A DNA stretch of 62,950 nucleotides, filler included, from Folioceros fuciformis (taxonomy: Eukaryota), in NCBI GenBank assembly GCA_049999805.1. It is 4 parts of 4 records of this genome, joined end to end, with 100 filler letters (N's around TTAATTAATTAA, not from the genome) between each part and the next. Parts side by side here need not be neighbours in the genome. Positions count along the whole stretch, not along the records: positions 14,270 to 41,669 come from JBNGIO010006186.1; 3 more parts are not named here. One strand, 5' to 3'. Positions 4,601 to 48,676 of the stretch are shown here, one piece after another. A program made the translations under genes and the position numbers. The notes under the pieces were generated by a model. It did not search any database. It was given only the letters and a program-made list of their open reading frames with translations, and was not told where the DNA came from. How positions within the stretch are numbered: position 1 is the stretch's first letter; each line of letters starts with the position of its first letter.

Positions 4601-5404
4601 CAGCGGCTTGTCCGGCAGGAATGCCATCCATGTGCCCGAGACAGTCACATCTGCTCGTCCATCGCTTGCAGCTTCTCCACGACCGAGAGTGGCGAAACTT
4701 TTTAGACATAGGTAAAGAAACGTTTCTATCATTCCTCGGTCCCAAGCTGGGCGGCTATAACGCGTAGGCCGCAGTCCAAGAGATCTTGTTTCTTTCACGA
4801 AGGACTTGGGAGGCTCTGGCACGACGTGTATGGAGGGCTCCTTGTCTGACCGTCGTATGTATGTATTTGCGACCCAACCGGCCTGATGATCTCTGAACAA
4901 CGGACAGCACTACTTCAATGAACTGGACTTCGAGGGACCGTGGAAAGCTTCGGATATGCCAGACGGCAGCCTTCCAACTCCGTCGACAGAAAGTACACTA
5001 CGGAGACTGAACGAAAAGTGTGTTCAACTCTGACTACGAGATCGAGGCAAGTCTCCGCAACAGTTGGGATTCCGCGTTCGAAGTCCTGGGGAGTCTACCA
5101 CACATTCTGCAGTCAGCAGGGCGCCGGCTGCGTCTCCAAGACGACGAACCCAGGATAAGAGGGAGCTGCCCAGCCATGTCCCTCAACCAGTCCGTTCTTC
5201 TCGTCCAGTTCGCTAATTCGGCTTCTGATCTGGTGTCCACATCGCTTGTCCTACGGGGAGTGTTGAAAGATTTGTGACTGAGCTCGGGACTGGAGGCTCT
5301 GTTGTCTGTTTCTGCAGCCTTGCACGTTTGGAGTCTTGCTGGGTTTTTCGTCCTCTGAAAATTCCAGTGACGTTGCACGAGGAGGATACCATCAAGATTA
5401 CAAA

Positions 5405-14169: not shown

Positions 14170-14269
14170 NNNNNNNNNNNNNNNNNNNNNNNNNNNNNNN
14201 NNNNNNNNNNNNNTTAATTAATTAANNNNNNNNNNNNNNNNNNNNNNNNNNNNNNNNNNNNNNNNNNNN
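14170..14269. other. Artificial contig spacer N44-TTAATTAATTAA-N44
   Basis: An identical 100-bp construct occurs three times; TTAATTAATTAA gives stops in all six frames. Confidence 0.95.
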
Positions 14270-15518
14270 GCTAAAAGGCGTTGCCATTGTGGTGATATTC
14301 GTCGGGAGCGCCTCCGGGGTCCTGCTCCCCATCCTCGGCAGGAGATTGAAGCAACTGAGGCCTGACAGCGATGTCTTCTTCGTCACCAAGGTGTTCGCGG
14401 CGGGAGTCATCTTGGCCACCGGATTTGTGCATGTTTTGCCAGAGGGACACGAATTTCTCACACATCCCCGCCTGGATCCTCATCCCTGGCGGGATTTCCC
14501 GTTCACAGGCTTCATGGCAATGTGCGCCACATTTTTCACCCTGGCTGTGCATTTCGCCGCTACGCAGTACTATGAGAACAAGCATGTGCCTGCCTTCCCT
14601 GCCATCGCACCGGATCTAGAGGCTGGAGGTGGCCAACAACAGAGCGCGCGTCATCTGAGTTGCGGTCAGGGAGCTTCTGTGAGTCTGCGTTCTCCGAGTG
14701 AGGAAAAGGACGCTCAAATCCGGAAGATTGTCGTCTCCCAGGTGATCGTGCTCTGAGCTATCAAAGCAAACGGGGACCAGCAGATTAAGCTCAAGCTCGG
14801 TCTATCTTGTCTATTCCTTGTGTAGTCTTTTCGGTTTGTTTCTTTGCAAAGCACTGATCTTGTTGTGGATTACGCAACGGTGACCGTGAATTGATACTTG
14901 CTCGCAGGTCTTGGAGCTGGGAATCGTAACGCATTCCATCATCATCGGAGTGGGAATGGGAGTGTCTAGCAGCCCTTGCTCCTTGCGGCCCTTGATTGCA
15001 GTGCTCGTCTTTCACCAGCTTTTTGAAGGCTTTGCCTTGGGAGGTTGCATAACTATGGTACTTGAACCTAGCTTCTTGTCATCGGACACTTACAAGTGCA
15101 TGCTCAGGACTTTCAGAATGCAGAGTTGGAGATGATGCTTAATTATGTGCAGACAGCTTGCTCCGGTTTACTGAACTTGCAGGAGCTGCAAAATCATCGC
15201 ATTTGTACGCAGGCAGCAGTGAAGACGGTGTCGGCATTGGCAATGGCTTTGTTCTTTGCCGCCACCACGCCGGTAGGGATAGCTATCGGTATGGTAGCGC
15301 AAACTAGGTACGATGCCAGCAGCCAAGCCGCTCTAATTGTGCAAGGTACGTTCAATTCGGTGTCTGCTGGAATTCTCATCTACATGGCTCTGGTCGATCT
15401 CATCGCTACCGACTTCCTCAGCAGCAAGCTTCGATCCAATGTCAAGCTGCAGGTGTCCTCCTACATTGCCCTCTTCACGGGCTCAGGCCTCACATCCCTC
15501 ATGGCCAGAGTTACGTAG
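14270..15518 (+). CDS. ZIP/IRT zinc-iron transporter, 5'-truncated by the spacer; exons ..-14741, 14908-15057, 15213-15518
   Basis: [61 protein letters not shown]. Confidence 0.92.
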
Positions 15519-15805: not shown

Positions 15806-17203
15806 CTAGATTATACGTATGGCTTCACTGCCAAAAAAGGTGGTGAGAGCAGCCCCTGCGATGAGGGCGATGTGCGAACACACCTGCAGCCGCACGTCGC
15901 TGCGCAGCCTCTTGGACAGGAAGGCGGTGGCGATGAGGTCCACCAGGGCCATGTAGATGAGAATGCCGGCGGAGATTGAGTTGAATGTGCCTTCCACCAC
16001 CAGCGCCACGGGGCTGTCTAAGTTGTAGGTGCGTTGCACTCGGAGGCCGATGCCGATACCCATGGGCGTGGTCACGGAGAAGACGGCGGCCATCACCCAC
16101 GCTGCAGCCGCCCTGAATCCAGCCTGTTGCACACTTTGAAGAAGAAGAATGTCATACTTGCAAGGGGCTCGGAGGAAGGCAGCCTTGCTAGTACCCAGAA
16201 CATGGATACATTCCGCAACAAGTGTGTAGAATTCCGGGGTACCTGGGCGATGGAGCCCCCGACGGCCAGGCCCTCAAAGAGCTGGTGCACCACCAGCACA
16301 GTCACCAGTGCCCTGATGGAGCAGGGGCTGTTGGACACTCCCAAGCCCACGCCTATGATCATCGCGTGCGTGCTCACAATCCCCAGCTCCAGCACCTGCA
16401 CATGTTTGCACACAGGTGCGCGAATTTCAATTTTGATTGTTTCTAAGATTATGTGATGCGGAGTCTGACTTCCAGGACCTTCGATAAACCTTGAAGCAAC
16501 CAGCAATTCGGATCGGATGTTCAAAGAGGTGGATCACCTGAGACACCAAGTGAAGCCAAGAAGGCCCTGGGACGTGAACGAGCTTCACTTCCTCCTGCTG
16601 CTGTTGCTTCAGGATCTGCTTCCCGTCCTGCTGCTGTTGATTTTGCTTCTCGTCCTGCTGCTGCTTCTCCAGGACCTGAGGAATCCGATCTTGCTCCTCG
16701 TGTTGCACAATGTGGAGGGTGCAGTCGATCGTATGGCATTGGATGGCATCGTGGCGACCCGCGGCGTCGAGTATGGCGGGGCTGTCGGTGTCGTTGCCGG
16801 CAGGGGCAGGAGGGCAGGCGGCGAGATAATCCCGGCGGCAGTAGTGGGTGGCGGCGAAGTGGGCCAGGAGCGTGATGAGCGAGCCGCACATGGCCAAGAA
16901 GCCGGCGAAGGGGAACACGGACCAGGGGTGCGGGTCCAAGGAGGGGTGGGTGAGAAATTCCTGCCCCTCGGACAAGACGTGCACGAAACCGGTGGCAAGG
17001 ATGACGCCCGCCGCGAACACCTTGGCCACAAATAGAATGCGGCTGTCGGAGCGGAGGAAGTCCAGGCTCCGGCACCACAGAGGGAGCAGCACGCCCAGGG
17101 CGCCGCTGAAGAGGATGGCAACGATGGCCACGCATTTGAGTTGCTCTACATCTGCCACCACTGTGCTCCTGCAGCTCGCTTTGTCCTGGCTGCAGGAATT
17201 CAT
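15806..17203 (-). CDS. ZIP/IRT zinc-iron transporter, paralog 2; exons 17203-16538, 16395-16243, 16123-15806
   Basis: [57 protein letters not shown]-rich cytoplasmic loop. Confidence 0.9.
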
Positions 17204-17811
17204 GGCTGCAGTCCAGTGCAGGCCTCCCTAAATGAAGTGGAATGCGGCTGCTGTCCTGCTCCTACATTGCCATGCTCAGGCCCAAGAGGGCAGGCATTCT
17301 TGACGGAGCTAAGTCCAAGCAGCAGCAGCTCGCGCTTGGGTCTCGCGCTGTCCAACACCCTAGACCTTGATTCGGGGCGGGGAGAATATCACACGTGTCC
17401 CAGGGACAGCAGCGGGAACTGTCTTCCCTGATCGAGCTTGTCTCAACGGGGGACTTCGAAATCCATGTCAGGTGGCTCGGGTTCGGGGCTGGGGCACTGG
17501 GCTGCACATTGGAGGGAAGCAGCGAGACCACGGGGAAATGCACACGTCTCATTGGGTGCATCCAACGCAGGTCAGGTCACGCCGAACACACGTTGATCAT
17601 TGGTTCCCCCGGAACTTATTTTCTACAGGACCTCGTGATCTGACAGTACGACGGGAATGATGGTTCCCCGCACACGACCGGCGTCTCCTAAACTGCATAC
17701 GACAGGAGGACATCTAGAGTCGGGGTTGAGAATAACAGCAACTTGTTCACGTACAGAAGAATTCGTGTAGATCACTATCAAGGTGTCTCCGGAAGGGCAC
17801 ACGTCCTAAAT

Positions 17812-22057: not shown

Positions 22058-25000
22058 TCACTGGCGGTCCCCACATGAACAAAAACCGTCAACAAAATGG
22101 TGGACACGGTGTGCATCTCGCACTATGATCTCTCGCTTTTCGATCCTGGACATGAGCTTCGTGCCACTATGGCAGTCATTGCACATTCTGAGATTCTTTG
22201 TGACCAGCAAAGTTGTGCCAGCAGGGGTGTTCAGCAGACCGTGAGCCAGAGCCAGCTTCTCCGCATGCCCACACAGGCCATCTTCCAGATCTCCATCGGG
22301 TGATGCATTCTGAAGCAACTCCGGGTGTGGGGTATCGTTTATCTCGCCCTCTGCCTGTATATTTACACTCTTCAACTTTGTAGAAATATCGTCCCTTTCT
22401 TCCCCAACCACGAAAGTGTGGATTTTGCTGCTTACTTCAATCCAGGCCCTTGCAGGTTTCTTGCAAATACCTGCGGCCCTTCTCAGGATTTCTAGATTTT
22501 CTACATCCCTCCACCTACCAGCATTTTCGTAAATGCTTGACAAGAGAGCGTACGCAGAAGAATTCTGAGGGTCCACTTTCATGACGCGCTCGAAGCATCG
22601 TCTGCCGCGGTCTATGTCACCATCGCTTCTGCAGGCAGTCAGCAAAGATGTCCAGCCCACTATGTCACTCTCATATGGCATCGTTTGCAGCATATTTTCG
22701 GCCTCCTCTAGCCGGCCTGACCGCCCAAGAACATCAACCACTGATGTGTAGTGGTGGACACTTGGAGTAATACCGTAGTTGTCCACCATCATCTTGAAGA
22801 ATTGCTGTGCCTCACCCACAAGACCTTCATGACTACATGCTGCGAGTAAAGACACAAAAGTGGTGTCGTCAGGCTCAACTCCATGTTTCTGCATCTCTTG
22901 GAAACACTTGATTGCAGATTTGCTCATGTTGTGTTGGCCGTACCCATTCAACAAGGTATTCCATGTCACCACATTTCTCGTGGGCAGTCTGTAGAACAGG
23001 CTGTGCGCATCATCCAAGCTCCCGCATTTGAAGTACATGTCCAACAGGCTAGTGCCGATAACTACATCACCTTCCAGGCCTCTTTCTCGAATTTGGGAAT
23101 GAAGCTGCTTCCCTTGAAGCAGGGCTCCAATACTAGCACAAGCTTTCAATAGCGACACGAATGTAACATTGTTGGCTGGAATGAGACCCTCTTGTTGCAT
23201 TCTTCCATAGAGGTCGAGGGCCGCATCTCCAAGTCCTCGGTCAGCATACCCTGAGATCATAGTATTCCATGTTACTACGTCTCTTGTAGCTAATCCCTCA
23301 AAAAGACGGGCAGCGTCTTCTAGGCTGCCGCATTTGGCATACATGTCCAGCAAGCTGTTGCCAACAACTAATTCAGCTTCAAACCCTCTTTCCCTAATTT
23401 GACAATGAAGTCCCTTGCCCTCTTGTAGAGCTCCTGCAATTGCACACGCTTTCAGCAGGCACACAAATGTCACAATATTGGGTACAGCAAGACCCTCCTG
23501 TTGCATCCTTGCATACAGACTGAGAGCTTCTCGGCCGCAGCCATGCTGAGCATATCCTGCAATCATAGCAGTCCACGTCACAACGTCTTTGGTGGGCAAC
23601 TCTTCAAATGCTCTGAAAGCATCCTCCAGACTGCCACTTTTGGCGTACATATCTACCAGGCAGTTGCCTAGAACCAAACTTGCTCTCAGTCCTCTTTCCT
23701 GAATTTGTGAATGAAGCTGCTTGCCTTCATGCAAAGCTCCCATGTTGGCACAAGCTTTCAAAAGGCACATAAATGTCACTTCGTTGGCAGGACTAAGGCC
23801 TTCCTGCTGCATCTTTGCATAGAGAGCCAGAGCTTCTGCACCATGCTCATGCTCGGCATAACCTGCAATCATAGCATTCCATGTCACCACATCCTTCATG
23901 GGTAATCTGTCAAAGACACCACGGGCATCTTCTAAGCTGCCACACTTGGCATACATGTCTATTAGGCTGTTCCCAATGACCAGATCTATCTCAAGTCCTC
24001 GCTCCCGAATGTGGCCATGAAGCTCCCTCCCTTCATGCAAGACCCCAACACTGGCACATGCTTTGAGGAGGCACACAAAGGTAACCTGGTTGGCTACGAT
24101 TTCACCTTCCTGTTGCATATTTGCATAAAGAGAGATGGCATCGTGCCCGAGCCCATGGTGGGCATATCCACCAATCATGGCAGTCCACGTTACCACATTT
24201 TTTGAGGGCAACCTATCAAACACTCTGCGAGCATCCTCTAAGCTTCCCCACTTGGCATACATGTCGACCAGGCTGCTGCCAACAACTACATCAGCCTCAA
24301 GCCCTCTTTCTCGAATGGCAGCATGCACGGACTTCCCCTCAGGTACCGCTCCAGTCATGGCGCATGCTTTTAGCAGGCACACATACGTCACATCATTGGC
24401 TGGAGCGGTTCCCTCCTTCTGCATCCTTGCATACATAGCAAGAGCTTCTTGAGGCAGCCCATGGTGTAAATAGCCTGCAATCATGGCATTCCATGTCACT
24501 GCATCTTTGGTGGGCAAGCTCTGAAACACACTCTGAGCATCCTGTAAGCTCCCACATTTTGCATACATGTCAACTAAGCTGTTACCTACAAATCTATCAG
24601 GCTCAATAGCACTCTCCAGAAGGTCAGCATGGACCTGCTTCCCATACGCCAAATCTGCCACACTTGCACATGCATTCAGCACAGCCACAAAAACATGATT
24701 GTTGGGCTTCACTGTCGACTGCTGCATCAATTGATACAGTTCCATGGCTTGCATAGGCTGCCGTTGAGCATGTGCAAGGATTATGGAGAACCACATGAAC
24801 GTGTTCGGCGAATCTATTCTGGTGAAAACCTGCATTGCCTCCTGCAACTTCCCATGACCAGCGTACATGCGTATGATGTGGTTGGCTAGAAATTTGTCAG
24901 ACTCGAACCCTGACTTACAAGCAAGGGCATGGACACGCCTTCCAATACCCAAATTCTTCTGTTCAATGCAGCTCTTGAGTAGAGAATATATGAGAGATTG

Positions 25001-25120
25001 TGGAACCCGACATCCTTGATGAACCAGTGAGTCCAAAGCTCCTACGCGCTCTCTCAGCCTCCCCTCCTCATGTAGTTTGGTGCAGATTCCAGGCTCTGAA
25101 GCCGTGCCAAAGCTCGCAAC
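22058..25120 (-). CDS. PLS-class PPR protein (~23 motifs) with E1/E2 and a DYW:KP domain ending in DRQ (DRH-like); true start lies upstream and is unresolved
   Basis: Regular L-S-P triplets; KKPARAWIEV, LCGHAEKLA, CNDCH, HHFVDGFCSCGDRQ*. The frame stays open upstream of the listed TTG (…KLHEEGRLRERVGAL). Confidence 0.9.
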   Translation of the reverse strand, partial: VASFGTASEPGICTKLHEEGRLRERVGALDSLVHQGCRVPQSLIYSLLKSCIEQKNLGIGRRVHALACKSGFESDKFLANHIIRMYAGHGKLQEAMQVFTRIDSPNTFMWFSIILAHAQRQPMQAMELYQLMQQSTVKPNNHVFVAVLNACASVADLAYGKQVHADLLESAIEPDRFVGNSLVDMYAKCGSLQDAQSVFQSLPTKDAVTWNAMIAGYLHHGLPQEALAMYARMQKEGTAPANDVTYVCLLKACAMTGAVPEGKSVHAAIRERGLEADVVVGSSLVDMYAKWGSLEDARRVFDRLPSKNVVTWTAMIGGYAHHGLGHDAISLYANMQQEGEIVANQVTFVCLLKACASVGVLHEGRELHGHIRERGLEIDLVIGNSLIDMYAKCGSLEDARGVFDRLPMKDVVTWNAMIAGYAEHEHGAEALALYAKMQQEGLSPANEVTFMCLLKACANMGALHEGKQLHSQIQERGLRASLVLGNCLVDMYAKSGSLEDAFRAFEELPTKDVVTWTAMIAGYAQHGCGREALSLYARMQQEGLAVPNIVTFVCLLKACAIAGALQEGKGLHCQIRERGFEAELVVGNSLLDMYAKCGSLEDAARLFEGLATRDVVTWNTMISGYADRGLGDAALDLYGRMQQEGLIPANNVTFVSLLKACASIGALLQGKQLHSQIRERGLEGDVVIGTSLLDMYFKCGSLDDAHSLFYRLPTRNVVTWNTLLNGYGQHNMSKSAIKCFQEMQKHGVEPDDTTFVSLLAACSHEGLVGEAQQFFKMMVDNYGITPSVHHYTSVVDVLGRSGRLEEAENMLQTMPYESDIVGWTSLLTACRSDGDIDRGRRCFERVMKVDPQNSSAYALLSSIYENAGRWRDVENLEILRRAAGICKKPARAWIEVSSKIHTFVVGEERDDISTKLKSVNIQAEGEINDTPHPELLQNASPDGDLEDGLCGHAEKLALAHGLLNTPAGTTLLVTKNLRMCNDCHSGTKLMSRIEKREIIVRDAHRVHHFVDGFCSCGDRQ

Positions 25121-26010
25121 CCTGCCAGGCCGAGGGCACTGTGAAGACGAGAAATCTTCAGGTAACTATCCCAATATGATAGGTACAAGAATAATAATTT
25201 TGCATTCTGAGGCAAACAAGAGATCCGAAAGAAGCTTGACCTTCCATGCTCTACATCATCCTCCTCTCTCAGCCTTGCCTCTACACCCGAAGGTTGTAAC
25301 AAGAGCTTTCCTCTCGGTGCGCCATTCAAGTGCATCGGATCCATTTGGTCCCTCTGTCCAAACATCCAATCAGCGCCCACAGTCCCGAAGCCAACACAGA
25401 TGGCAACCACTGGGCGGTGACAGAAAAATCACCTTAGTCGGATACCCCGGAAACCTTTCCTGCAAAGCCTCTGCACCACCTGGAACAGTTCAAAAGTACC
25501 CAACCCATGCATGAGAATCTACGACAATCTTACCCGCAACACAACCCAGCAAAGCTAAGTTGATGCATTACCCACCGGATTTGCGATGCTCTGCTAGTCC
25601 CCAAAAGGAGGAGAAAAATCTGCACCATTCCTCGCAAGGACCGTGTTTGCTTCTTTCGATGAGGCTGCAGAAAGGACCGCTGACTCCACCACCAGTCCTC
25701 ATCTCGTGGTTGCTAACGGATTTACAGACATCTGCAGCTTTTGGATTCCGGGCAGCCTGGAATGGCGCCCCAGTTACAAATCTCATACGGTGTGTCAGCG
25801 CACAAGCAATTCAGAAGGAGGAGGCTCTTTTTTTTGTGTGCTGAGGCATCGATTTTGCCGTGCCCATGTGCAATATGATGCTCACGAGTCACGAGCAGCT
25901 CATGTCAAACCTACTTGATTTGAATTGGACAGCGGAGTTCGAGCAGTCACCAACTTGTCCGACGCTATTTAGGGCTGCGACAGAGCGATCGGCCAGGACA
26001 GCTTGCAACG

Positions 26011-29039: not shown

Positions 29040-29596
29040 ATGACGGAAAGGACAATGAGACCTTTCAAAGGGCCCGCAGCGTGCAGGGGCTGTTCATGAC
29101 TCTTCTTTCCCGTTCCGTATGGATTGTCTCAAATCAAAACTTCTGCTGTGCTCTTCAGGAGATGCTCACCCTCTTGGCATCGTGAGATTGACAATCTGCT
29201 GCCAAGATCCGGGGAAAATGTTATTTGAATCTTCTCCGGATTTTGCCTTGTCGTTCGTTCGAACGTTCGTCCCTCTGCTTCGTGTACAAGACTGGCGGAT
29301 TTTTTATGGTATCGGATGTGCTCAGGCTCACTCAGTGAGACAGCACCCCGCACACACACATTCACAGCTGCATTTTGCCTGCACGTTGCCTTCCATCACA
29401 AGGCTTGCCGATCTCAGTTCCCATTGAGTATGCTGAGGGTGCATGGCCTCAGATTAATATGTCGTGTTGCCGTAGAGACCTCGCTGCAGGGTGGTGTGGT
29501 AGACGGATTACTCCCACTCATCTGCTGCGTGTATCGGCAGAATTTTCCATGCAGGAGATTGAGAGCCACAACAAGCCGGAAGCTGAGTTCAAGTGA
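29040..29596 (+). CDS. Putative 52-aa micro-exon protein of unknown function; exons 29040-29080, 29159-29181, 29291-29308, 29418-29438, 29541-29596
   Basis: Four GT-AG introns of 78, 109, 109 and 102 bp join phase-compatibly into MTERTMRPFKGPAARCSPSWHHWRIFYVPIEYAEEFSMQEIESHNKPEAEFK*. Assembled by eye; no homolog recognised. Confidence 0.45.
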
Positions 29597-30463
29597 AGCC
29601 GGTCGCTCACTTTGCGTCTGCCCTGTGGGAGATACTAAGACTCTTCTAATCAAAGTGTCTCTGCGTGCGGCCATTTCAGCTGAGTGCCCGTTCACTATGC
29701 CGCGAAAGCGACGGCAGAAAGTGTGGCAGGAGGATTCAACCTCCACTAAGTCTCTACTCAATATTCCAATATATTCATAATAATTTATCCCATAAATTTA
29801 AACAGTCCGTTGTCGTAACGTCATGCCACAGCAGTTTGCACCCCACGACACGGCTGTGACTGGACCCACAGGGCTTTCTAATTATTTTTTTGTTTGGGTT
29901 GACATTTTCTCTGTGTTCCAGCCCTGGTTGCATCTGAGGCACTGCAAGAAGAAGGCAAACCTTCCGGGAGATTTTTCCGATCTGTTTATTCCAGGCTTGC
30001 TGCAGTTGGTGAGGGGAAGCCCTGTGCTGCTATTTTCCCGCCTTTCTGTGGTGCAATTTTTTCTCCCGAATCTGTGCATCTCCCCTTAGATACAGATAAT
30101 TGATTGTGGTAGATGAAGATTCATTCCTAGAGGCCGACTATAGGCAAGTGGTTGTGGGATAAAAACAAGAAGCTCTCAACAAAACCAATATCAGGTAACT
30201 GGTTGTGAGGAAAATGTAACAAGCTCGCTACCCGAACAGAAATTGCAGCAGAAGCACACACGTACTATCTCGCTGTACCTTTCATGCGTCTAAGTAAAAA
30301 TGTGCAATGCTTTCCTACCTGATGGCGGGGATATGTCAAGTTTTATGACGGGTGGGAGAAGTCCAACGCCATGGTGAAAAGAATCGTGACTTGAAGAACA
30401 GCATGCAATTTTCTCATGCCTCCGGCTCCATGTCGAGCACACACAGATTGTGGGAAGAAGGGA

Positions 30464-32660
30464 TCACCGGAGCTGTAAAATGGAGAGTCCGAGACACAGC
30501 CCAAAAAGTACAGGAACCCAAGCGCTGATAGAGGGAGACAAGATACCCGCGTATCCAGCGCCGCCACACAAACCAGAAATCCCCATGTACAGCACGACAC
30601 AAAGAATTGAGATGACAAAAGGTTTGCTTCTTTTTTTTGAAGACGTGCTTGTGCTAGTACAGCTTGACAGAGTTGCTGTAGCCCCAATCTGCCAAATAGG
30701 AGAATCAGTGCAGTATGTGAGGATGGCATTGAGGGCACAGACCTCATGAGCCTTAGAACCTATCAGGATCACATAATACAGTCATTCATGAAGTGCCTAC
30801 TAAGGTGGAACAAAGCACATGATCACATGTGATAAGCTTACCAAGCCATACGCTATACAAGACACTGCTGCAGCATCACGCTGATGAAGTGCACACTTCA
30901 AAGCTACGACCTCTTTTTCATCTCCTGAAAGGCTTTTCTTCTCCCTCAGCTGCATCCATCTGCTTGTCATAGACCACCTCTGTTCACCACTCTCAAGAAA
31001 GCCCCTTGGACTTGGACTTGGTGCAATATTTTGGCCGGTGGCCTTGCTGCTGGAACCTTTGAGCTCAAGAGTGGCGATGTCATGAAGTAGTTGCATCCTT
31101 GTGCGATTTGCAGGACTGGAACCGCTCCCTGGACTTATATGTGCTAGGCTCATACCAGGGACTTGAAGAGAATCTGCCTGCAAGTTTGCCGCCGTCATGC
31201 ACAATATGCTGCGTTCAACAGCCCACACTCAACGGGTTGAGATACTTTACCTGCAGCATGGGGCAAGTGGACGGATGTTGAGATAATTCGACAACTGCAG
31301 CCTTGCGGAGTTCAAACGCACCCTCATGTGGTTTCCATTCACACTCCTCGGCAAGAACCACCTGTACAGCAGGAAAAGTAGCATTTGTGACTCATGATGA
31401 GTAAGGGCTTGGTAATGGTGGGACATCAAAGCGCTAGCACACGGAACTTCTTGATAACGTACATGCTCAACTTGGCCGCTAGATGACAGATCTAAAAGCA
31501 CAAGACCCGACATATGGGCACCTTTCATCTTCTGGGCATACCAGATCTGCTGCAAGACTCTCTTCGTTGTCGATCTGGCTGGCTCATGTTCCTTGCTGTC
31601 AGTCACAACCGCCGTGCCTGCACAGTGTCACATATTGTCAGTAGCAGAAGAGGACACCATAGCCACAAACAACAAAAACGACCCCCTGACTGACGCAGAC
31701 CATAACGAGGATAAGAAATGTCTTCATTTTGCCGTAGGTTCTGTATGTGCGTTGTGAGAGCGCCTTCGACCATCTTGCGACCACTGGATGTAGCATTGTC
31801 ACCATTCAGACACCAGAGCACCTTGCTTCATGGTGCTCAAACCGGAGTCCATGGCACACAACAACTTACTGGGAGCTACAAAAAGGCACCAGGAAGTCAT
31901 TGCAGGCAAGCTTCAGCAAGACAGCTGCCCCACAAAGACAGGCAGGAGCTATCAGCATCCGCCACAATGGAACTCCTGCAGCCAACAGCGCGACGATTTC
32001 GTTGTCGGCCTGCCACAGCAAAGTCCATCATCCATCAACTTCTGCCAACGCCACCCGCCGACAGGATGAATGTACTCAGATGGACATTCGTCACCACCTT
32101 CAAACGCCCGAGACCAAACAAGGTTGCAACCATGCAAGCCATGGGCATAATCTGCGACGCGAAAAACGGCAGCTGCAGCGTTGCAGCACCCAGTGCAACA
32201 GCCAAAGGCAAACCTGCCCACTCCAAACACCATGACCACCTCAGCCACCCACCAGAATATCATTAGCAAGATGAATCCAAAGCTCAGTACACTGAACCAC
32301 ACCTGATGCCACAACCTCCCTCACAAGGCCTACAAGAGTTCCCAGTGACAGCCCCAAAGTCGTCCCCACACCCAACGCAATAGCAAATGGCGGCACCATC
32401 TCCCTGAACAAGTAGCCATCTAGAAGAGGCAATTTCGCTCCGCCCTTGAATCCCCCCCATCTTCCACTAGACGCCCCAAGCCCAGTATCTCGCCGGCCAC
32501 TTCTCATGCAAAGCCAGATGTGTGAACTCCATGTGGCAGGAACAGGACGCCACTCTTTACCACTCGGTCTCCCGATGCTGCGCCCTCTTCTCCAGCTGGG
32601 AACATGTTTCGCAAGCTCGGCAGGATGCTGGGGCTGCGAGCACACGAGGTGAAGATTCAT
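30464..32660 (-). CDS. LptF/LptG (YjgP/YjgQ, Ycf84-like) permease with a transit-peptide-like N-terminus, multi-exon
   Basis: Spliced segments: LDGYLFREMVPPF; GLPLAVALGAATLQLPFF…MPMACMVATLFGLGRLKADNEIVALLAAGVPLWRMLIAP…NDFLVP; WYAQKMKGAHMSGLVLLD; LHQRDAAAVSCIAYGL; LSPSISAWVPVLFGL. This is the 3TM-periplasmic-3TM pattern of the family. Confidence 0.78.
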
Positions 32661-33151
32661 CGCGCCCCTCACCCATCTGCCAAATTAGTCACACACAACC
32701 ATTACGAGGCCACGAGCGGGCTCTGAAACGGAGGACGATTCTGGTCCAACATGGTTGTTTAGCACATAGCGTGCGTTCGTCACCAGTGCTAACCAAATTG
32801 GGCATGTGCAACGTCTATCCTGCTTTCCTGTCTGATCTTCCTGCTCGCACGGATCTTGGGGTTCTGCCTGAAATGCCTGGTGGACAAATGTAGATTCAGA
32901 ACTGAGGATATGGTGCAGGAGACGCTGGGAAAGAACGTTGGGACATTCACCACTTTCATCAGTTGTGGACATGGCAGGGACGCATGGCTGAATTCAAGGC
33001 CGGGGAATTGCGCTCTCAGTTTCTTTTGCATTCAAGCTCTCCGGCTTCGGGCTAATGGGAGCCAGCTCGTATGCTTTTGTGACGGTACCCGGGCGTCCTG
33101 GCATAGTCTGTTGTTTGACTCATCTTCCGACACCTATCCTATCCCTGAACG

Positions 33152-36040
33152 ATGGCCACAGCATGGCAATCGGACCCGCTGTGGACCCAACACATTGTTG
33201 TGAGTACAGGGGTTCTATTAGGAGCTCCCGCTCACCTCACCGTTGGGAGTGAAGCCCTGGTCAACAAAGTCTCCAGACGCAGCAATGTGAGGAGCCTGGC
33301 AATGGGTGGGAACAGCTTTTCCAACGATGGTAGTCGCCAGAGGCAAGACTACTTGTGGCACCAAGTTTTTGCGGACCCTACCTTATGGTGGGACAGCAGA
33401 CGAGAAAAGAAGAGATCCCGTTCGCCTGACGCCCAGCGTAAGGAGTCTGGCAAGTTGCAGTGTGTAGACAACATGTCTAGGCCAGCTGGGGTTGATGACC
33501 AGCTCATTTCCTTGGATGTACAGATGGGTCAGGGTGCATCTCCTTCGAAATGGAGATCTCCGGATGGGGCTGAACCTGGCAGGCGTGATGGATGGGAAAT
33601 GGACGTCGTAACAGCTGGAACCGTGAGCACGTTATGTCAGCAGGGGAAGCTTTCTGAGGCCATTGGGGCTCTAGAGTCTCTGGCGCAGACAGACTCTGCT
33701 ATTTCTCAGTCTCTGTTGTACAATTTGCTGAAGTTGTGTACAGCTAAGAAGGATTTGGTTGTGGGGCGACGAGTTCATGATCTCGCTGTCAAACTTGGGT
33801 ACGATTCAAATGCATTCTTGGGGAACCATATCTTGCGCATGTATGCAAGGGAAGGGAGGCTAGAAGAGGCCATGGATGTGTTCACCAGGGTGGATAAACC
33901 AAATGCCTTCATCTGGGTTTCCATAATCTCTGCACATGCGAAGTATGGGAGGCCTAAAGATGCCATACAACTGTACCATGAGATGCGTAGGTCAGGACTG
34001 GAGGTGGATGCTCATGTGTTTGTAGCTGCCCTTCAAGCTTGCGCATTTGCCGGCGACTTGGAATCCGGCAGAAGAGTGCACTATGATTTTCTGCAGAGTG
34101 GGATTCCCACAAACTTGTTTGTTGGCACCTCCCTGGTGGACATGTATGCAAAATGTGGAGAACTGGAAGATGCACGTAGGGTTTTTGACAGCTTGGCTGC
34201 AAAAAGTGTGGTAACATGGACTGCCCTGCTTGCGGGGTACGCAAATCATGGGTTCAGCCAAGACGCGCTTCTTTTGTATGGGCAAATGGAGGAGGAGGGT
34301 CTGACTGTGGCCGATCATGTTACTTTTGCTTGCCTTCTGAGGGCTTGTGCAAGCACGGGTGCCATACAGAAGGGCAGGCAGCTGCACTCTCAGATTGTGA
34401 AAAGAGGACAGCTGCCTGACCTCCTTTTGGGCAACTGCCTGGTGGATATGTATTCAAAATGTGGTGAACTGAATGATGCTCGCCAGGTTTTTGACAGCTT
34501 GGCCACAAAAGATGTGGTGACATGGACGTCGATGATTGCTGGGTACGTCCAGCAGGAACTCGGGCATGAGGCACTTATTTTGTACGAACAAATGGAGCAA
34601 GAGGGCCTAGTGTTGGCTAACCATGTCACTTTTGCTTGCCTTCTAATGGCGTGTGCAAGCACAGGTGCCTCACAGAAGGGCAGGCGGCTGCACTCACAAA
34701 TAGTTGAACGAGGACTGCTGGATGACGTAGTGTTGGGCAACTGTCTGGTGGGCATGTATGCCAAATTTGGTGAGATGGAGAATGCACGCCAGGTTTTTGA
34801 AAGCTTGGTCACCAAAAATGTGGTGACATGGACAGCGCTGATTGCTGGGTATGCACAGCAAGGACTCGGCCATGAGGCGCTGGTTCTGTATGGACAAATG
34901 GAGGAGGAGGGCCTCTTTTTGGCTGATGATGTTACATTTTCTTGCCTTCTAAACGCCTGTGCAAGCACTGGCGCTTTACAAAAGGGCCGGCAGCTGCACT
35001 CTGAGCTTGTCAAACGAGGACTGCTGGATGACGTCGTGGTGGGCACCTGCCTGGTGGACATGTACGCAAAATGTGGAGAACTTGTAGAGGCACGCCGGGT
35101 CTTCGACAGCTTGGCCACAAAGAATCTGGTGACATGGAATGCCCTGATATGTGGGTATGGTACCTGCGATGAGGGTCACAGTGCGCTAGCTTGTTTTGAG
35201 GAGATGTTAGCTGCCGACATCCAGCCGGATGGCGTTACTTTTACTTGCCTTCTAGTAGCGTGTAGTCATGCAGGACTGGTTCAGGAGGGTCGCAATCACT
35301 TTGAATCCATCGCTGAACAACATGGCATCAAACCCACTATTGAGCATTACGTTTGCATGATTGATCTTCTTGGGCGTGCAGGCCATTTAGATGAGGCTGA
35401 AAACATGCTCCTATCATGTGAAGGCCAAAGTAATGTTGTGGGCTTGACATCTTTCTTGAATGCCTGCAAAAGTCACGGGGATTTAGAGAGGGCGAGGTGG
35501 TGTTTTGAAAGGATTGTTAAGCTAGATCCGCAAGGGGCATCAGCGTATGTGCTCATGGCCAATGCCTACGCAGATGCAGGTATGTGGATCGATGTAGAAA
35601 GGATTGAAACACAGAGAATGTTAGCAGGAGCTAACAAGAAACCTGCAGTGGCGACTATTGAGGTCAATATGCAGGTACATAGATTTCTGGTGGGAGAAAG
35701 GAGAGAGGATATTGCTCTTAAGGCAGTGAGCACGAATGCACGTATCAAGCAGGAAGGAGGGCACGTTCCTCAAACCAAGCTGGTATTGAAGCCAGGGTGT
35801 GAGAAGGACAAGGAAATTGCACTTTGCGGGCATGCTGAGAAGCTAGCTCTGGCATTTGGTCTCTTGCACACTCCAAGTGGAATACCTCTGGTGGTAACAA
35901 AGAATCTGCGGATGTGCAATGACTGCCACAGGTCCACGGAGATCATGTCAAGGCTTGAACACAGAGTCATTGTTGTCCGAGATGGGTACCGTGTGCATCG
36001 ATTTGCAGCTGGTTGTTGCAGTTGTAAAGGCCGACCTTAA
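33152..36040 (+). CDS. PLS-class PPR protein (~17 motifs) with a GRP-type DYW:KP domain and a degenerate N-terminal PDF-like motif
   Basis: Single ORF; KKPAVATIEV, LCGHAEKLA, CNDCH, CCSCKGRP*; N-terminal LWHQVFADPTLWWDSRREKKRSRSPDA. Confidence 0.93.
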   Translation: MATAWQSDPLWTQHIVVSTGVLLGAPAHLTVGSEALVNKVSRRSNVRSLAMGGNSFSNDGSRQRQDYLWHQVFADPTLWWDSRREKKRSRSPDAQRKESGKLQCVDNMSRPAGVDDQLISLDVQMGQGASPSKWRSPDGAEPGRRDGWEMDVVTAGTVSTLCQQGKLSEAIGALESLAQTDSAISQSLLYNLLKLCTAKKDLVVGRRVHDLAVKLGYDSNAFLGNHILRMYAREGRLEEAMDVFTRVDKPNAFIWVSIISAHAKYGRPKDAIQLYHEMRRSGLEVDAHVFVAALQACAFAGDLESGRRVHYDFLQSGIPTNLFVGTSLVDMYAKCGELEDARRVFDSLAAKSVVTWTALLAGYANHGFSQDALLLYGQMEEEGLTVADHVTFACLLRACASTGAIQKGRQLHSQIVKRGQLPDLLLGNCLVDMYSKCGELNDARQVFDSLATKDVVTWTSMIAGYVQQELGHEALILYEQMEQEGLVLANHVTFACLLMACASTGASQKGRRLHSQIVERGLLDDVVLGNCLVGMYAKFGEMENARQVFESLVTKNVVTWTALIAGYAQQGLGHEALVLYGQMEEEGLFLADDVTFSCLLNACASTGALQKGRQLHSELVKRGLLDDVVVGTCLVDMYAKCGELVEARRVFDSLATKNLVTWNALICGYGTCDEGHSALACFEEMLAADIQPDGVTFTCLLVACSHAGLVQEGRNHFESIAEQHGIKPTIEHYVCMIDLLGRAGHLDEAENMLLSCEGQSNVVGLTSFLNACKSHGDLERARWCFERIVKLDPQGASAYVLMANAYADAGMWIDVERIETQRMLAGANKKPAVATIEVNMQVHRFLVGERREDIALKAVSTNARIKQEGGHVPQTKLVLKPGCEKDKEIALCGHAEKLALAFGLLHTPSGIPLVVTKNLRMCNDCHRSTEIMSRLEHRVIVVRDGYRVHRFAAGCCSCKGRP

Positions 36041-36517
36041 GGCTCAGAATAGTGAAGAATCATCTAGCCAGTTCGATCTTGCTGAGCTACGGAGTCTGAA
36101 AGACCACCAAAATGATTCGTGAGGAATTTGTCTTTCTGCCTAGAAACACAGACGAATCCTTTTTCCCCATCTTAGTTTATCAAAAGTTCGGATTACTATA
36201 TTTCGAAAATAGAAACACTAACACCATTCCTGGTGTCATGGAATACATTATTTCTGTGTCTGAACAGTCATGGTGTCCAAGAACAGTATCCAGCTGTTGA
36301 AGGATCGTTGGGCTTCTTCGCCCGTCCGCCTTGTGAGCATGAGAGGTCCGGAAGACATGTCTCAAGCTGTGGGAACCAAGTTCCACGATGTTTGTCAAGG
36401 GGCCAGTCACAGCGGCCTTGATCCGCCTCACCCACAACTTCGGCGCTATGCTGCCCATCGGGTAGCGATTTGGCGCTCGACCTGGGGAACAGGTTGAGCT
36501 CATTCGCTGCCCTGGCC

Positions 36518-38803
36518 ATGGCTTCGGCAGCGCAACGACTACGCTCCTTGCTGCGAATTTCTCCTGCTGCCTGCTCATTCTTTTCCTCAGCTGCCGTCCG
36601 GAGCGGCGTAAGGAGCCCAGCACTACCGCTTCCGAGAAAATGTGTGGTTGGGGACGGGTTTTCCAGCGATGGTCGTTGCCAGGAGCAGGAGCACCTGTGG
36701 CAACAATTTTTTTTGGACCCTTCCATGTGGTGGGACAACAGACGAGATAAGAAAAGCTCCCGTTCGCCTGACTTCCGCCGTAGGGGATCCGGCGAGGTGC
36801 TGTGGTTGAACAGTATGTCTAAGCCAGCTTGGGTTGATGAGCAGCTCCTCTCCTTGGATCTGGGGGTGGGTGCAGGATCGGAAATGGGCGTTGCAACCGC
36901 TGGAACCGTGAGCATGTTATGTCAGCAGGGAAAGCTTTCTGAGGCCGTTGGAGCACTTGAGAATCTGGCGCAGACAGATTCTGCTATTTCTCAGTCCCTG
37001 TTTTACAGTGTGCTGAAATTGTGTACAGAAAAGAAGGACTTGGTTATGGGGCGACGAGTCCATGATCTCGCTGCGAGACTTCGGTACGAGTGGAGTGCTT
37101 TCTTGGGGAACCATATCTTGCGCATGTATGCATATGGAGGTAGCCTGGAGGAGGCCTTGGATGTGTTCACCAGGGTGGCCAAACCAAATGTCTTCTTGTG
37201 GGTTTCCATAATCTCTGCTCATGCTAAGCACGGGAAGCCTAAAGAGGCCATACGACTGTACCATGAGATGCGCAGATCAGGAGTGAAGCCGAATGCTCAC
37301 GTCTTTGTAGCTGTCCTTCAGGCTTGTGCATTTGCGACCGACTTGGAATCCGGGAAAAAAGTGCATCGTGATGTGGTGCAGAGTGGCATCCCTACTAACT
37401 TGTTTGTTGGCAACTGCCTAGTGGACATGTATGCCAAATGTGGCGAACTGAAAGATGCACGCCAGGTTTTTGACAGCATGGCCACAAAGGATGTGGTGAC
37501 GTGGACGGTGCTGATTGCTGGGTATGCCAAATGTGGAGAACTGGAAGATGCACGCCGGATTTTTGACAGCATGAACACGAAGAATGTGGTGACATGGACT
37601 GCCCTGATAGCTGGGTATGCCCAGCAAGGGCTCGGCCATGAGGCGCTTGTTCTGTATGCCCAAATGGAGGAGGGACTCATTTTGGCAGACGACGTCACCT
37701 TTGCGTGCCTTCTTAACGCCTGTGCAAGCACTGGCGCTTTACAAAAGGGAAGGCAGCTGCACTCAAAGATTTTCGAAAGAGGACGGCTGGATCACGTAGG
37801 GGTGGGCAACTCCCTGGTGGACATGTATGCAAAATGTGGTCAACTGGAAGATGCACGCCGGGTTTTTGACAGCATGAGCACGAAGGATGTAGTGACATGG
37901 AATGCCCTGATATTTGGGTATGGTACTTGTGATGATGGCCGCAGAGCACTAGCTTGTTTTGAGGAGATGTTAGTTGCTGGTATTCAGCCTGATGGTGTAA
38001 CTTTCACTTGCCTTTTAGCAGCATGCAGTCATGAGGGACTGGTTCACGAGGGTCGCAAGTACTTCGATTCCATGGCTGAGCAACACGGCCTCAAACCAAC
38101 AATTGAGCATTACAATTGTATGATTGACCTTCTTGGGCGTGCCGGGCATTTACATGAGGCTGAGAACATGCTCTTATCATGCGGCGGCCAAAGTAATGTT
38201 GTGGGCTTGACGTCTTTGTTGAGTGCCTGCAAAAGTCATGGGGATTTAGAGAGAGCCATGTGGTGTTTTGAAAGCATTATTCAGCTGGACCCTCGGTGGA
38301 CGTCTGCGTACGTGCTCATGGCCAATGCCTATGCAGATGCAGGTAGGTGGACCGATGTGGACAGGATTGAAACACAGAGATTGTTAGCAGGAGCCAACAA
38401 GAAACCTGCAGTGGCGACCATTGAGGTGAACAAGCAGGTACATCGATTTCTGGTGGGAGAAAGGAGAGAGGATATTGCCCTTAAGGTTGAGAGCACGAAT
38501 GCACGCGTGAAGCAGGAAGGAGGGCACGTGCCTCACAGTAATTTGGTGTTGAAGCCAGTGGGTGAGAAGGAAAAGGAGGACGCGCTTTGTGGACATGCCG
38601 AGAAGCTAGCCCTGGCGTTTGGTCTCTTGAACACACCCAGTGGGACACCTCTGGTGGTAACGAAGAACCTGCGTATGTGCAGTGACTGCCACAGTTCGAC
38701 GGAAATCATGTCAAGGCTTGAACAAAGAGACATTGTCGTAAGGGATGGGTACCGTGTACATCGATTCGCAGCTGGGTGTTGCAGTTGTAAGGGTCGACCA
38801 TGA
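36518..38803 (+). CDS. PLS-class PPR protein (~12 motifs) with a GRP-type DYW:KP domain and an intact N-terminal PDF-like motif; likely start ATG 36518
   Basis: Presequence-like MASAAQRLRSLLRIS…; WQQFFLDPSMWWDNRRDKKSSRSPDFRRRGSGEVLWL; KKPAVATIEV, GHAEKLA, CSDCH, CKGRP*. Confidence 0.93.
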   Translation: MASAAQRLRSLLRISPAACSFFSSAAVRSGVRSPALPLPRKCVVGDGFSSDGRCQEQEHLWQQFFLDPSMWWDNRRDKKSSRSPDFRRRGSGEVLWLNSMSKPAWVDEQLLSLDLGVGAGSEMGVATAGTVSMLCQQGKLSEAVGALENLAQTDSAISQSLFYSVLKLCTEKKDLVMGRRVHDLAARLRYEWSAFLGNHILRMYAYGGSLEEALDVFTRVAKPNVFLWVSIISAHAKHGKPKEAIRLYHEMRRSGVKPNAHVFVAVLQACAFATDLESGKKVHRDVVQSGIPTNLFVGNCLVDMYAKCGELKDARQVFDSMATKDVVTWTVLIAGYAKCGELEDARRIFDSMNTKNVVTWTALIAGYAQQGLGHEALVLYAQMEEGLILADDVTFACLLNACASTGALQKGRQLHSKIFERGRLDHVGVGNSLVDMYAKCGQLEDARRVFDSMSTKDVVTWNALIFGYGTCDDGRRALACFEEMLVAGIQPDGVTFTCLLAACSHEGLVHEGRKYFDSMAEQHGLKPTIEHYNCMIDLLGRAGHLHEAENMLLSCGGQSNVVGLTSLLSACKSHGDLERAMWCFESIIQLDPRWTSAYVLMANAYADAGRWTDVDRIETQRLLAGANKKPAVATIEVNKQVHRFLVGERREDIALKVESTNARVKQEGGHVPHSNLVLKPVGEKEKEDALCGHAEKLALAFGLLNTPSGTPLVVTKNLRMCSDCHSSTEIMSRLEQRDIVVRDGYRVHRFAAGCCSCKGRP

Positions 38804-44407: not shown

Positions 44408-44984
44408 GAGGTGACGGAACTTTCCCATGTCTGGGAAGGTCGGGAAATCTTAAGAGACCGGAAACTATTATGAGGAATGTTTATTATGGACTAGAAATTA
44501 AATGCGGGGCGCAACGCAGCTCGATGGAAGCCCAGATCTTCATAGCATTGCGTACTCCCTAAATAGCCGCATCTTCCTGAGGCTCTGAAAAGTTTCGGGG
44601 GCCATTGTCAGCGTGGTGCACCCCCGGAATCTGGGAAAAGGTGGAGTGCCATTGCAACCTGCCAACCTGCACATGCTACAGCGACACTGGATTCCTCGTT
44701 TCGTTTCCTCTAAAGCGAATTGCGACAACGTTCAGTGGGACGTGCGCGTCTCCTATCTAAACGCGGTGCAGGAGATGCGCGCTCAGCCTGGTTAGATCTG
44801 GAGGCTTGCAAGTACGAAAAATTCCCCGCTGGCCGCACATGTGCGCCGGTATATGTGTACCGATCAGCAGGCTGCAGCGATAGGCGAGTACATCAGAGCA
44901 TTTGTTACAGGTTGATCTGGACACAGCCCTTGGCTTGCCTTGCTTGCTGGTTGTGGAGGATAGGTCTGTGTGCCTGCGCTGTTG

Positions 44985-47269
44985 ATGAGCGTCGCTGGTA
45001 CTAGTGCAATGAAAGGCGTTGTGGAGCCAGAAATTGTGCCACAGGCCCATCGACATCCTGTGTTTCTGCAACTCACCACCTTGCTTGCAGCTTTAGTAGT
45101 GCTCGTGTCTCTGCTCTCCATTCTGCGGAACAGGAGGCGGTCCAACCTGCCGCCGAGTCCGCCAGGGGTGCCAGTGTTTGGCAACTTGGGGGTGTTCGTA
45201 AGCACCAGTCTGCCGCATCAGAAGATTACCCAGCTGGCGCACAAGTATGGGCCAATCATGTCTCTCAAGCTGGGAGCCAAGCTGGCCATCGTTGTCAGTT
45301 CTCCGGAGATGGCCAAGGAAGTTTTCAAGAACTACGACAAAGAGTTCGCTGATCGTCCCCAGTCGACATTCAAGGACGTTGCCTGCTACGGCGACCATTG
45401 CATGCCATTGCTCGAGTACGGGCCTAACTGGCGGAATCTCAGGTACAGTTCCCATTTGTCTGCTAGCCTACATCATTCCACGTTATGTGGCTGTCTCTCA
45501 AGCGCGCGCGCATGGCATAGATCTATCCATGTTATTACCTAGCCTAAGCCGGCAGATGCACGACCAATTTAGTGATCACCAATCAACAATGTCACCGCCC
45601 GCCTATCGCGACCTGCAGGAAAATTGTGACCTTGGAACTCCTTACTGCTAAGAGGATTCAACAATTTGAGGAGGTGAGGAGGGAGGAGGTGTCGGGCATC
45701 ATTCGTTCCATTCTGGAGGACAGTCGAAACGGGGAACATGTCGACATGGACAAAATGACCACCTACGTGATCATGAACATCGCTACCCGCATTCTCATGA
45801 GCAAGCGATTCTACGCCTACAGCAAGGAGTCCAGAGAATACCAAGCCGCCGGCCGTGAGGTATATAGTGCACCAGCTTTCAATATGTACGCTTGTCATCT
45901 CAGTTTCCAAAGACTGCTTCATGAGGAGTAGACATCCCAGGATCCCATCTTGCCACTTGAGTCGATCGCATCTGCGGCATGATCAAACACAACTGCCTCT
46001 AGATAGATCTCGTTCTGATATAATTTGATCGGATGCCCGGAAGAAAAATCAGACTGAGGACCTGAGCGACGAGTTCAAGAGGCTTGTAAGCGAAGTGGCT
46101 TCATTGGCCAGCGTTCCTCTCATTGGGGATGTCATCCCCTACCTGAGATTTCTGGATCGGGTGCAAAACCGCAAGAGCAAGATGGTCAAAGTCCACAACA
46201 GGTACGACTCGTTTCTGGATGGAATTCTGAAGGAGCATCGAGACACCCGGGCCGCGCACGTCGGCGAGCCCCGAGATTTCGTTGATGTTTTGCTCGATCT
46301 GCCGCAAGAACCAGGAGAAAACGAAGAGGTCCGCGACGATCGCATCAAAGCACTTGTCATGGTACGAATATGGACGCCTGTCATCGTGCATGAATAAAGT
46401 TGTCGTTACTTTCGTTGAATGCAGTGATCTGTGATACTACTTCTTGACTGACTGCATACAAGTATATAATTATGCATACATTGGCGGCCTGCAGGATATG
46501 ATCAACGCAGGAGTGCACTCCACCAGCCTGTGCCTGGAGTGGGCCATGGCAGAGCTCATCCGAAATCCTGGTGTCATGGAGAAGCTGCAGGCTGAAATTG
46601 ACGGAATCGTGGGTCGCCACAGGCAGGTGACGGAAGCCGACGTTGCTCACGCCAGCTACCTGCACGCTTTCTTGAAGGAGGTGCTGAGACTCCACCCTCC
46701 TGGACCACTGGCAATTCCTCGTCAGTCTAATGAATGGTGCAAGGTTGCCGGGTACGACATCCCCCCCAACACCCAACTCTTCCTCAACGTCTGGGGCATC
46801 TGCCGGGACCCCACGGTATGGCCAGACCCGCTTCACTTCCAGCCTGAACGATTCCTTACCAGGTAATCTATTGATGTTAACTCTTGCACTAGCAGTGTGT
46901 TCTTCACCAGTATCTCGTTTCTCAACCTCGAATCCCAGACCTCTCAGCGTGTCTGAATGACAAGATTGATAAAACGAAAACTAAGTTACTGCAAGACTTG
47001 CTTTGGCTTGCAGTAACATCGACTTCAAGGGCCATCACTACGAGTTTCTACCCTTTGGAACTGGCAGAAGAGGGTGCCCGGGGATGAACATGGCCTTGAT
47101 TCTGCTGGGCTACACTTTGGCCAGGCTTGTGCACAGCTTCGACTGGGCTCTTCCAGATGGACAAAACCCCCAAGACTTGGACATGACCGAGAAATTTGAG
47201 CTGGCCCTCCCCAGAGCTCAACCTTTGATTGTAGTCGCAACTCCTCGACTACCGCATCATCTGTTCTAA
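44985..47269 (+). CDS. Cytochrome P450, CYP71 clan; exons ~44985-45442, 45619-45859, 46053-46361, 46495-46862, 47014-47269
   Basis: TM anchor plus LPPSPPG, WRNLRKI, KEVLRLHPP (ExxR), FQPERF, PFGTGRRGCPG; atypical I-helix AGVHST. Confidence 0.92.
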
Positions 47270-48123: not shown

Positions 48124-48676
48124 ACTTGGATTCTAAAGAATGGGCATCTTGAAGGAAGAGCTTCGATCGGAAGAATGCCAGGTTTGATTCCGAAGACAAG
48201 GCACATGAGTCCTGGCAAACGGTGGTAGGAAATTGAGGCAAGCATTTTGGATCTCGCTCGGCAACCCCAAATTTGGATCTGGGTTGTGGTGCCAGCGGCT
48301 TACGGGACTGCGTGCTGCAAAGTAACCCAGATTCCAGTGAACGGGTTCTTTCTTGAAGGGAGAGCTTGGGACGTACAGACAAGCGTAATCTGAGATCGAA
48401 ATTCGAAGATGAGTAACCAGAGTCCTGAGGTACGGACGGGAGGGAGGCAAGCTTGTCCGACCTCTCGGCAACGGCGTGGGCTCTGGGTTGCGGTACCTGG
48501 AGCCTCGGTACCTGGAGCCTGCGGCCGGTGGATCCGCATCTAGAGTTTATTATTGCGAGTACAAGAGCCAGCGTGAGCATAGTACATGTGACGGTATCGG
48601 CAGGCTCAGCAAACTGCTCAAGGCAGCAGCCGTGCGTTCCAATCCAATTACTTCGACTGCAAGAAGGTAGCAAGCA

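Follow-up and report, generated by a model that had tools for sequence, protein, structure and literature searches.

The closest described relatives of the gene reported here are LptF and LptG, which sit in the membrane as subunits of the bacterial lipopolysaccharide extractor LptB2FG(C) (E. coli lptF/lptG; PDB entries 6MHU, 6MIT, 5X5Y and 8FRL), typify outer-membrane biogenesis in Gram-negative bacteria and serve as a target for antibiotics. In these proteins a glutamate in the coupling helix is described (PMC5082905) as strictly conserved and as required for binding and coupling to the ATPase LptB. We analysed a stretch of DNA of 62,950 nucleotides from the land plant Folioceros fuciformis (assembly GCA_049999805.1; the whole stretch is called the window below) and report that a gene on its minus strand, at 30464..32660, is a real, expressed and divergent member of the LptF/G family. 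That a land plant has an expressed, intron-bearing nuclear copy suggests survival of part of this Gram-negative machine beyond endosymbiosis in some plant lineages. As a precedent, a bacterial outer-membrane lipid transport machine is kept in the chloroplast envelope, where TGD1/2/3 (Mla-like) and the LptD-like TGD4 form a system driven by an ATP-binding cassette (ABC) ATPase. Plants also keep Lpx (lipid A biosynthesis) genes, and we know of no role or transport route for the lipid A-type product that these would make.

A search of the full-text literature, with most subscription journals outside its coverage, returned no description of a plant or plastid LptF/LptG, and the term 'ycf84', under which an initial annotation of this DNA had cited an LptF/G-type gene of algal plastids, is absent from the text searched. 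The chlamydial YjgP is the only subject of PMC1403754 that bears on the family, and PMC13381928, considered as a report of a plant LptF/G, was rejected as a misspelling of LTPG20. An automatic PF03739 label may well exist in plant genome annotations, and would lower the novelty of the gene.

The initial annotation had placed an intron-containing homolog of LptF/LptG at 30464..32660, and these ends turn out to be exactly the stop and start codons of a minus-strand gene that runs from an ATG at 32660 to a TGA at 30464-30466 through eight exons and seven introns. The exon model was derived from stop-to-stop frames and a base-level reading of candidate GT/AG sites. Joined, the exons make an open frame of 1524 nt that encodes 507 residues and ends in TGA; an in-frame stop (32685-32687) lies just 5' of the main ATG, and the introns, all of them GT..AG, are 73-153 nt long with a GC content of 0.44-0.53. 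All the family motifs that the initial annotation had named occur in the spliced product (LLDGYLFREMVPPF; PMACMVATLFGLGRLKADNEIVALLAAG; PSISAWVP). The parts of the gene are as follows, where X1 is a sequencing run described below and P0001 and P0002 are database relatives.

32303..32660, minus strand: exon 1, coding start at ATG 32660, with a basic extension of ~75 residues, the conserved N-terminus and the first hydrophobic segment (LLDGYLFREMVPPF...); based on the frame, the GT donor 32302-32301 and the X1 joint 32211->32301 (cut +2), which skips 89 nt
32098..32213, minus strand: exon 2, second hydrophobic segment (PMACMVATL...GRLK); PF03739 match, X1 joints on both sides
31870..32009, minus strand: exon 3, which encodes the coupling helix, its conserved Glu included (ADNEIVALLAAG, E162), and hydrophobic segment three; PF03739 match, X1 joints
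31701..31783, minus strand: exon 4, start of the loop domain; X1 joints 31783->31870 and 31616->31700 (cut +1), frame preserved
31463..31617, minus strand: exon 5, long in-frame form; X1 joints 31359->31461 and 31359->31540, both forms translated
31251..31361, minus strand: exon 6, loop domain; X1 joints, aligns to P0002
30842..31177, minus strand: exon 7, the portion of the loop rich in S and P, and the beginning of hydrophobic segment four (HQRDAAAVSCIAYGL); X1 joints 31176->31250 and 30688->30842, aligns to P0001 and P0002
30464..30688, minus strand: exon 8, fifth and sixth hydrophobic segments, PSISAWVP and the stop TGA 30464-30466; PF03739 match
30133..30463, minus strand: 3' untranslated region of ~330 nt; X1 record 1 covers 30133-30688 with no mismatch, and the spliced contig ends at 30133
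32560..32676, minus strand: upstream out-of-frame ATG, whose frame of 39 codons runs over the main ATG; this upstream ATG matters only if transcription starts 5' of it

Membership of the LptF/G family exceeds chance. Pfam and NCBIfam models were scored on the exon pieces and on P0002, and the whole spliced product on a profile of our own, for which six bacterial LptF/G domains were used (those of E. coli LptF and LptG and both halves of the fused LptF-LptG proteins P0005 and P0006). Three of the eight stop-to-stop exon pieces match PF03739 (LptF_LptG), colinearly with gene order: exon 2 at profile positions 38-76 (E 1.7e-6, 27.8 bits), exon 3 at 77-120 (E 6.1e-8, 32.5 bits) and exon 8 at 292-351 (E 8.9e-8, 32.0 bits), the cut-off being 27.9 bits in each case; the remaining five pieces have no Pfam match at E<=1. 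On the bacterial profile the spliced product reaches 95.7 bits, and the best of 2000 shuffles of it reaches 5.9. Together with the 139.8 bits (E 1.5e-40) obtained on PF03739 by P0002, the only full-length relative found, these scores uphold the homology proposed by the initial annotation, which had named a profile search as its check and a missing profile match as evidence to the contrary.

The predicted topology is that of the family as well. Kyte-Doolittle windows exceed 1.5 at about residues 88-113, 116-154, 162-202, 423-441, 454-480 and 480-507 of the product, and hydropathy thereby gives three plus three hydrophobic segments around a loop of ~220 residues (~205-420), which is the LptF/G layout. 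Residue E162 aligns with E84 of E. coli LptF and E88 of E. coli LptG, in an alignment column (MAFFT) that holds Glu in all eight rows, including E230 of P0002.

Transcript evidence comes from X1, a public sequencing run from a 2017 study, which is stored as contigs; the other two runs of that study carry the labels of two other organisms. X1 contains 0.67 of the words sampled from 30300-32800, and its contigs align to 29500-33500 with 0 mismatches and eight joints, each of them CT..AC on the plus strand, that is, GT..AG on the strand of the gene. Seven joints are the seven introns of the model, all removed in the contigs, and the eighth stems from an alternative donor. Both the spliceosomal-type introns asserted by the initial annotation and the spliced transcript that it looked for are thus present. 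Because contigs from which seven canonical introns have been removed can hardly come from another source, we take X1 to be derived from RNA, and a processed retrocopy in a DNA run is a remote alternative. No sequence alignable to the gene region was found in runs X2 and X3.

Alongside the productive form, X1 holds two that are non-productive: the alternative donor, at 31542, shortens exon 5 by 79 nt and shifts the frame so that a stop is reached in exon 7, and one short contig (31754-31899) is unspliced across intron 3. X1 marks no transcription start, since its record 4 extends from exon 3 through exon 1 and then unbroken to 33500, and so runs into the start of a divergent pentatricopeptide repeat (PPR) gene at 33149. 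The unbroken stretch (32301-33500) may mean that the two genes lie head to head and overlap at their 5' ends, or that X1 includes some material that is unspliced or derived from DNA. If the message begins far enough upstream to contain it, the out-of-frame ATG 16 nt 5' of the main start, which stands in a stronger context (CAGATGG vs GCGATGA for the main start), is a possible element of translational control.

Few relatives of the gene are present in the databases. An exhaustive HMMER search with the 74 residues of exon 8 against 1,835,955,588 representative proteins returned three at E<=1e-3, none of which carries a protein name: P0001, a partial protein of 225 residues (46% identical, E 3.7e-12); P0002, of 600 residues (E 3.4e-4); and P0003, a metagenome fragment of 88 residues. 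Only P0001 and P0002 are eukaryote-like. Both of them, and P0004, a cluster mate of P0002, are known only from Logan assemblies, P0002 and P0004 on contigs of 2.5 kb. So thin a representation among 1.84 billion proteins points to loss of the gene in most sequenced plants.

The whole mature part of the product aligns with P0002 (36.6% identity over 453 residues, E 1e-84), which has an N-terminal extension of its own of ~145 residues. Identity to P0002 is 51% in the first three transmembrane segments and the coupling helix, 45% in the last three, 27% in the loop and 31% in the extension, a pattern as expected under selection on the transporter core. P0002 itself points to the same family by two further routes: among PDB sequences, 17 of its 18 matches at E<=1 come from LptF or LptG, with LptG alone at E<=1e-3 (five of five), and its feature matches in the ESM Atlas all carry PF03739 (30 of 30). 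P0001 matches exons 7 and 8, with 30 extra residues (~121-150) placed exactly at the exon 7/8 junction, the first a V and the last a Q; this insert looks like an intron, in frame, that a gene caller has read through, which would mean that the intron position is shared with another species. Although these proteins come from other organisms, and P0001 seems to read through the intron, P0001 and P0002/P0004 resemble the product in QRDAAA.SC before the fourth segment, in VWYA..M.G in the loop and in a long N-terminal extension, at 37-46% identity.

Word search requires shared words of five residues, and so gives weak evidence of absence: with exon 8 it yielded 141 candidates among longer proteins, none at E<=1e-3; with P0002 residues 140-600 it found P0002 only; and with residues 145-290, at E<=10, it found P0002 and two bacterial fused LptF-LptG proteins (E 0.4 and 1.5). 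Motif scans of a genome collection of 185,579 species gave 56 pattern matches with P0002 and 216 with an alignment, A2, none of them confirmed, and tblastn of P0002 against plasmids gave no match. A metagenome scan with alignment A2 gave at least 596 pattern matches and one confirmed locus, L004, which was rejected as a close relative, being a bacterial lptF-lptG pair with a GC content of 0.61 and 24-32% identity to the product. Its lptF-like and lptG-like genes are adjacent (355-1894), and the coupling helix of its LptF (KDNEIVALAASGVS) is near the plant motif.

From the gene model, the family assignment and the transcripts, we lean, on balance, towards a functional, expressed nuclear gene for a divergent PF03739 permease that acts as a lipid extractor in an organelle envelope. 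The precursor, with its basic extension of ~75 residues, would be imported into the inner envelope membrane of an organelle, the plastid being favoured and the mitochondrion possible. Two subunits, either two copies of the protein or the protein and an unseen paralog, would together be the membrane part of an ABC transporter, and an LptB-like ATPase would bind, from the matrix or stromal side, to their coupling helices with the conserved Glu. ATP hydrolysis would then lift a lipid or glycolipid out of the inner membrane's outer leaflet and into the enlarged loop domain, which would face the intermembrane space; the substrate may be a lipid A-like molecule, because plants keep the Lpx genes. 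We infer this mechanism (targeting, partner ATPase, dimer state, substrate and bridge to the outer envelope) from the LptB2FG family, and the glycolipid bridge across the plastid envelope, which the initial annotation had put forward with a putative cyanobacterial origin, would be part of it.

A broader proposal is that land plants without seeds, together with two or more other eukaryotes (the sources of P0001 and P0002), retain in an organelle inner envelope a working ABC extractor of the Lpt type that exports a lipid A-like glycolipid, the product of the plant Lpx enzymes, toward the outer envelope, as a leftover of the endosymbiont's machinery for outer-membrane biogenesis, comparable to the plastid peptidoglycan retained in bryophytes. 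We advance it tentatively, and regard it as doubtful. If it is true, a dedicated extractor would fill the missing transport step for plant lipid A-like molecules and offer a single-gene genetic handle, and the long-unexplained role of these molecules would become directly testable through one gene. The occurrence of the gene is real and rather unexpected; the functional reading is attractive but unproven.

Several observations weigh against an organelle-envelope extractor of this kind. The NCBIfam equivalog scores of P0002 lie far under the cut-offs for both subunits (89.5 vs 230 bits for LptF, TIGR04407; 91.4 vs 240 for LptG, TIGR04408), so that function may have drifted; the exon pieces of the window score 11.8-22.4 bits on these models. 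The protein is divergent and its relative falls under both cut-offs, and we therefore use a family-level name, LptF/G-like, rather than LptF or LptG. Matches to PF03739 are also present in control genomes of Thermus, Deinococcus and Thermotoga, which to our knowledge are without classical lipopolysaccharide (LPS), and family membership thus leaves the substrate unfixed. No LptB, LptC/A, LptD or Lpx was found among the 86 open reading frame (ORF) pieces scanned with Pfam in the window. The assignment of a presequence comes from composition, the type of run X1 is only guessed, so that its RNA nature follows from its spliced contigs, and the upstream out-of-frame ATG and the frame-shifting splice form could reduce protein output. 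Structure prediction was also named as a check by the initial annotation. The AlphaFold2 model of P0002, made from a five-row alignment, is of low confidence (mean predicted local distance difference test score, pLDDT, 46.8; predicted template modelling score 0.39). For the beta-jellyroll that the family has in its loop domain, the model offers strands (295-398) between the helical blocks, at a pLDDT mostly below 60. This succession of helices, strands and further helices agrees with the LptF/G family, and a Foldseek search of this low-confidence model against the PDB gave 22 matches at E<=1e-3; among the matches listed (14 of the 22), all are LptF/G chains, with target TM-scores of 0.49-0.62 and root-mean-square deviations of 10.6-15.3 A, which lends the family weak support.

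The first of the alternatives takes the protein as a repurposed scaffold, an ABC-type extractor for other cargo (another envelope lipid, or something lipoprotein-like) that builds no bridge of the Lpt type. The distance of P0002 from both equivalog cut-offs speaks for it, as do the low identity of the product to bacterial LptF/G domains (16-25%), the enlargement of the loop by an S/P-rich insert in exon 7 and the occurrence of the family in the three control genera above. Yet the coupling-helix Glu and the layout of three plus three segments around a loop are kept, and the Lpx genes of plants would be able to supply a lipid A-like substrate; we see repurposing as an appreciable possibility, though an unlikely one.

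A second alternative keeps the protein and its mechanism but places them in the mitochondrial inner membrane, with a non-cyanobacterial (for example alphaproteobacterial) ancestry and in the service of a lipid A-like pathway. The R/S-rich stretch that the initial annotation had noted at the N-terminus is indeed there: the first 78 residues hold 9 R, 4 K, 9 S, 11 G and 3 acidic residues, a net charge of +10, and this composition fits a plastid or a mitochondrial presequence equally, being Arg-rich and strongly basic as in mitochondrial presequences, but also Ser/Gly-rich and poor in acidic residues like plastid transit peptides. Enzymes of the lipid A-like pathway of Arabidopsis were reported to be mitochondrial by Li, Wang and Raetz in PNAS in 2011. 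On ancestry, none of the searches gave a sign that the protein is close to cyanobacteria, the only bacterial proteins from word search are the fused LptF-LptG proteins, and the top three of 30 look-alike clusters in the Atlas are commonest in Abditibacteriota, Spirochaetota and Pseudomonadota, although these taxa do not amount to a phylogeny. We consider the mitochondrial version, as a whole, rather improbable.

That the gene is a transcribed relic, expressed but without a working protein, appears very unlikely. A relic might be expected from the out-of-frame upstream ATG in its stronger context, from the frame-shifting splice form and the unspliced piece over intron 3, and from the paucity of relatives (three at E<=1e-3 among 1.84 billion representatives), but the frame is open through all eight exons, and it is on the membrane and coupling-helix parts that conservation relative to P0002 centres, with the key Glu kept. 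A bacterial contaminant in the assembly, or horizontal transfer in the very recent past, which could appeal to an otherwise bacterial family with no named eukaryotic homolog in the protein searches, is effectively refuted, as the initial annotation had argued from the introns, and is set aside because the gene sits between plant genes in one contiguous stretch and has a base composition equal to theirs (GC 0.525; GC at third codon positions 0.50), to which are added seven GT..AG introns spliced in transcripts, the absence of confirmed relatives in both motif scans of the 185,579-species collection and the eukaryote-type features shared by P0001 and P0002.

By gene content (Pfam scans of 10 + 76 long ORF pieces) the window is plant nuclear DNA. 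In addition to an mTERF gene, a Nup54 piece and a Nodulin-like/NFD4 gene, Pfam identifies the following.

5282-6798 and 7843-9383, plus strand: two SABATH-type (Methyltransf_7) carboxyl methyltransferase genes in tandem, of three ORF pieces each
14226-15515, plus strand, and 15809-17227, minus strand: two convergent ZIP metal transporter genes
22061-25165, minus strand, and 33149-36037 and 36422-38800, plus strand: three PPR genes that lack introns and carry an E motif and a DYW-deaminase domain
44964-46863, 48671-49681 and 54307-56407, plus strand: two cytochrome P450 genes and a polyphenol oxidase gene, the latter with Tyrosinase and the plant-type PPO1_DWL and PPO1_KFDV domains
58700-62204: retroelement remains, with RVT_2 on the plus strand and RVT_1 and RNase H on the minus strand

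The products of the three PPR genes carry KKPA[RV]A near the C-terminus, where DRQ, GRP and GRP take the place of the final DYW; this is the 'KP' variant of the domain, which is associated with U-to-C editing of RNA in hornworts, certain lycophytes and ferns.

Compared with the bacterial LptF/LptG proteins, the product shares PF03739, the three plus three segments with a large loop between the third and the fourth, the coupling-helix Glu and a C-terminal motif of the type P..SAW.P. It differs from them in being encoded by a nuclear gene with introns, in its N-terminal extension of ~75 residues and in a loop that is ~70 residues longer and carries the S/P-rich insert; it is 16-17% identical to E. 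coli LptF and LptG, and its gene has no adjacent paralog and no operon. Assignment to F or to G is impossible, since P0002 fails the cut-offs of both. The product is closest to the N-terminal halves of the fused bacterial LptF-LptG proteins P0005 (788 residues) and P0006 (742 residues), at 23.6% and 25.1% identity, and these are the best bacterial word-search matches to P0002, with E-values of only 0.4 and 1.5 in a database of 5.8 billion sequences; they have two PF03739 domains per chain, whereas the plant protein has one, and P0007, another member of the fused group, bears the JGI name 'LptG/LptF'. The TGD system of the chloroplast envelope differs in family (MlaE/MlaD/MlaF-type), in being found in seed plants and in importing lipid derived from the endoplasmic reticulum, and the analysis brought out no sequence relationship between it and the product. 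The algal 'ycf84' of the initial annotation would be a plastid-encoded gene, whereas the present gene is nuclear.

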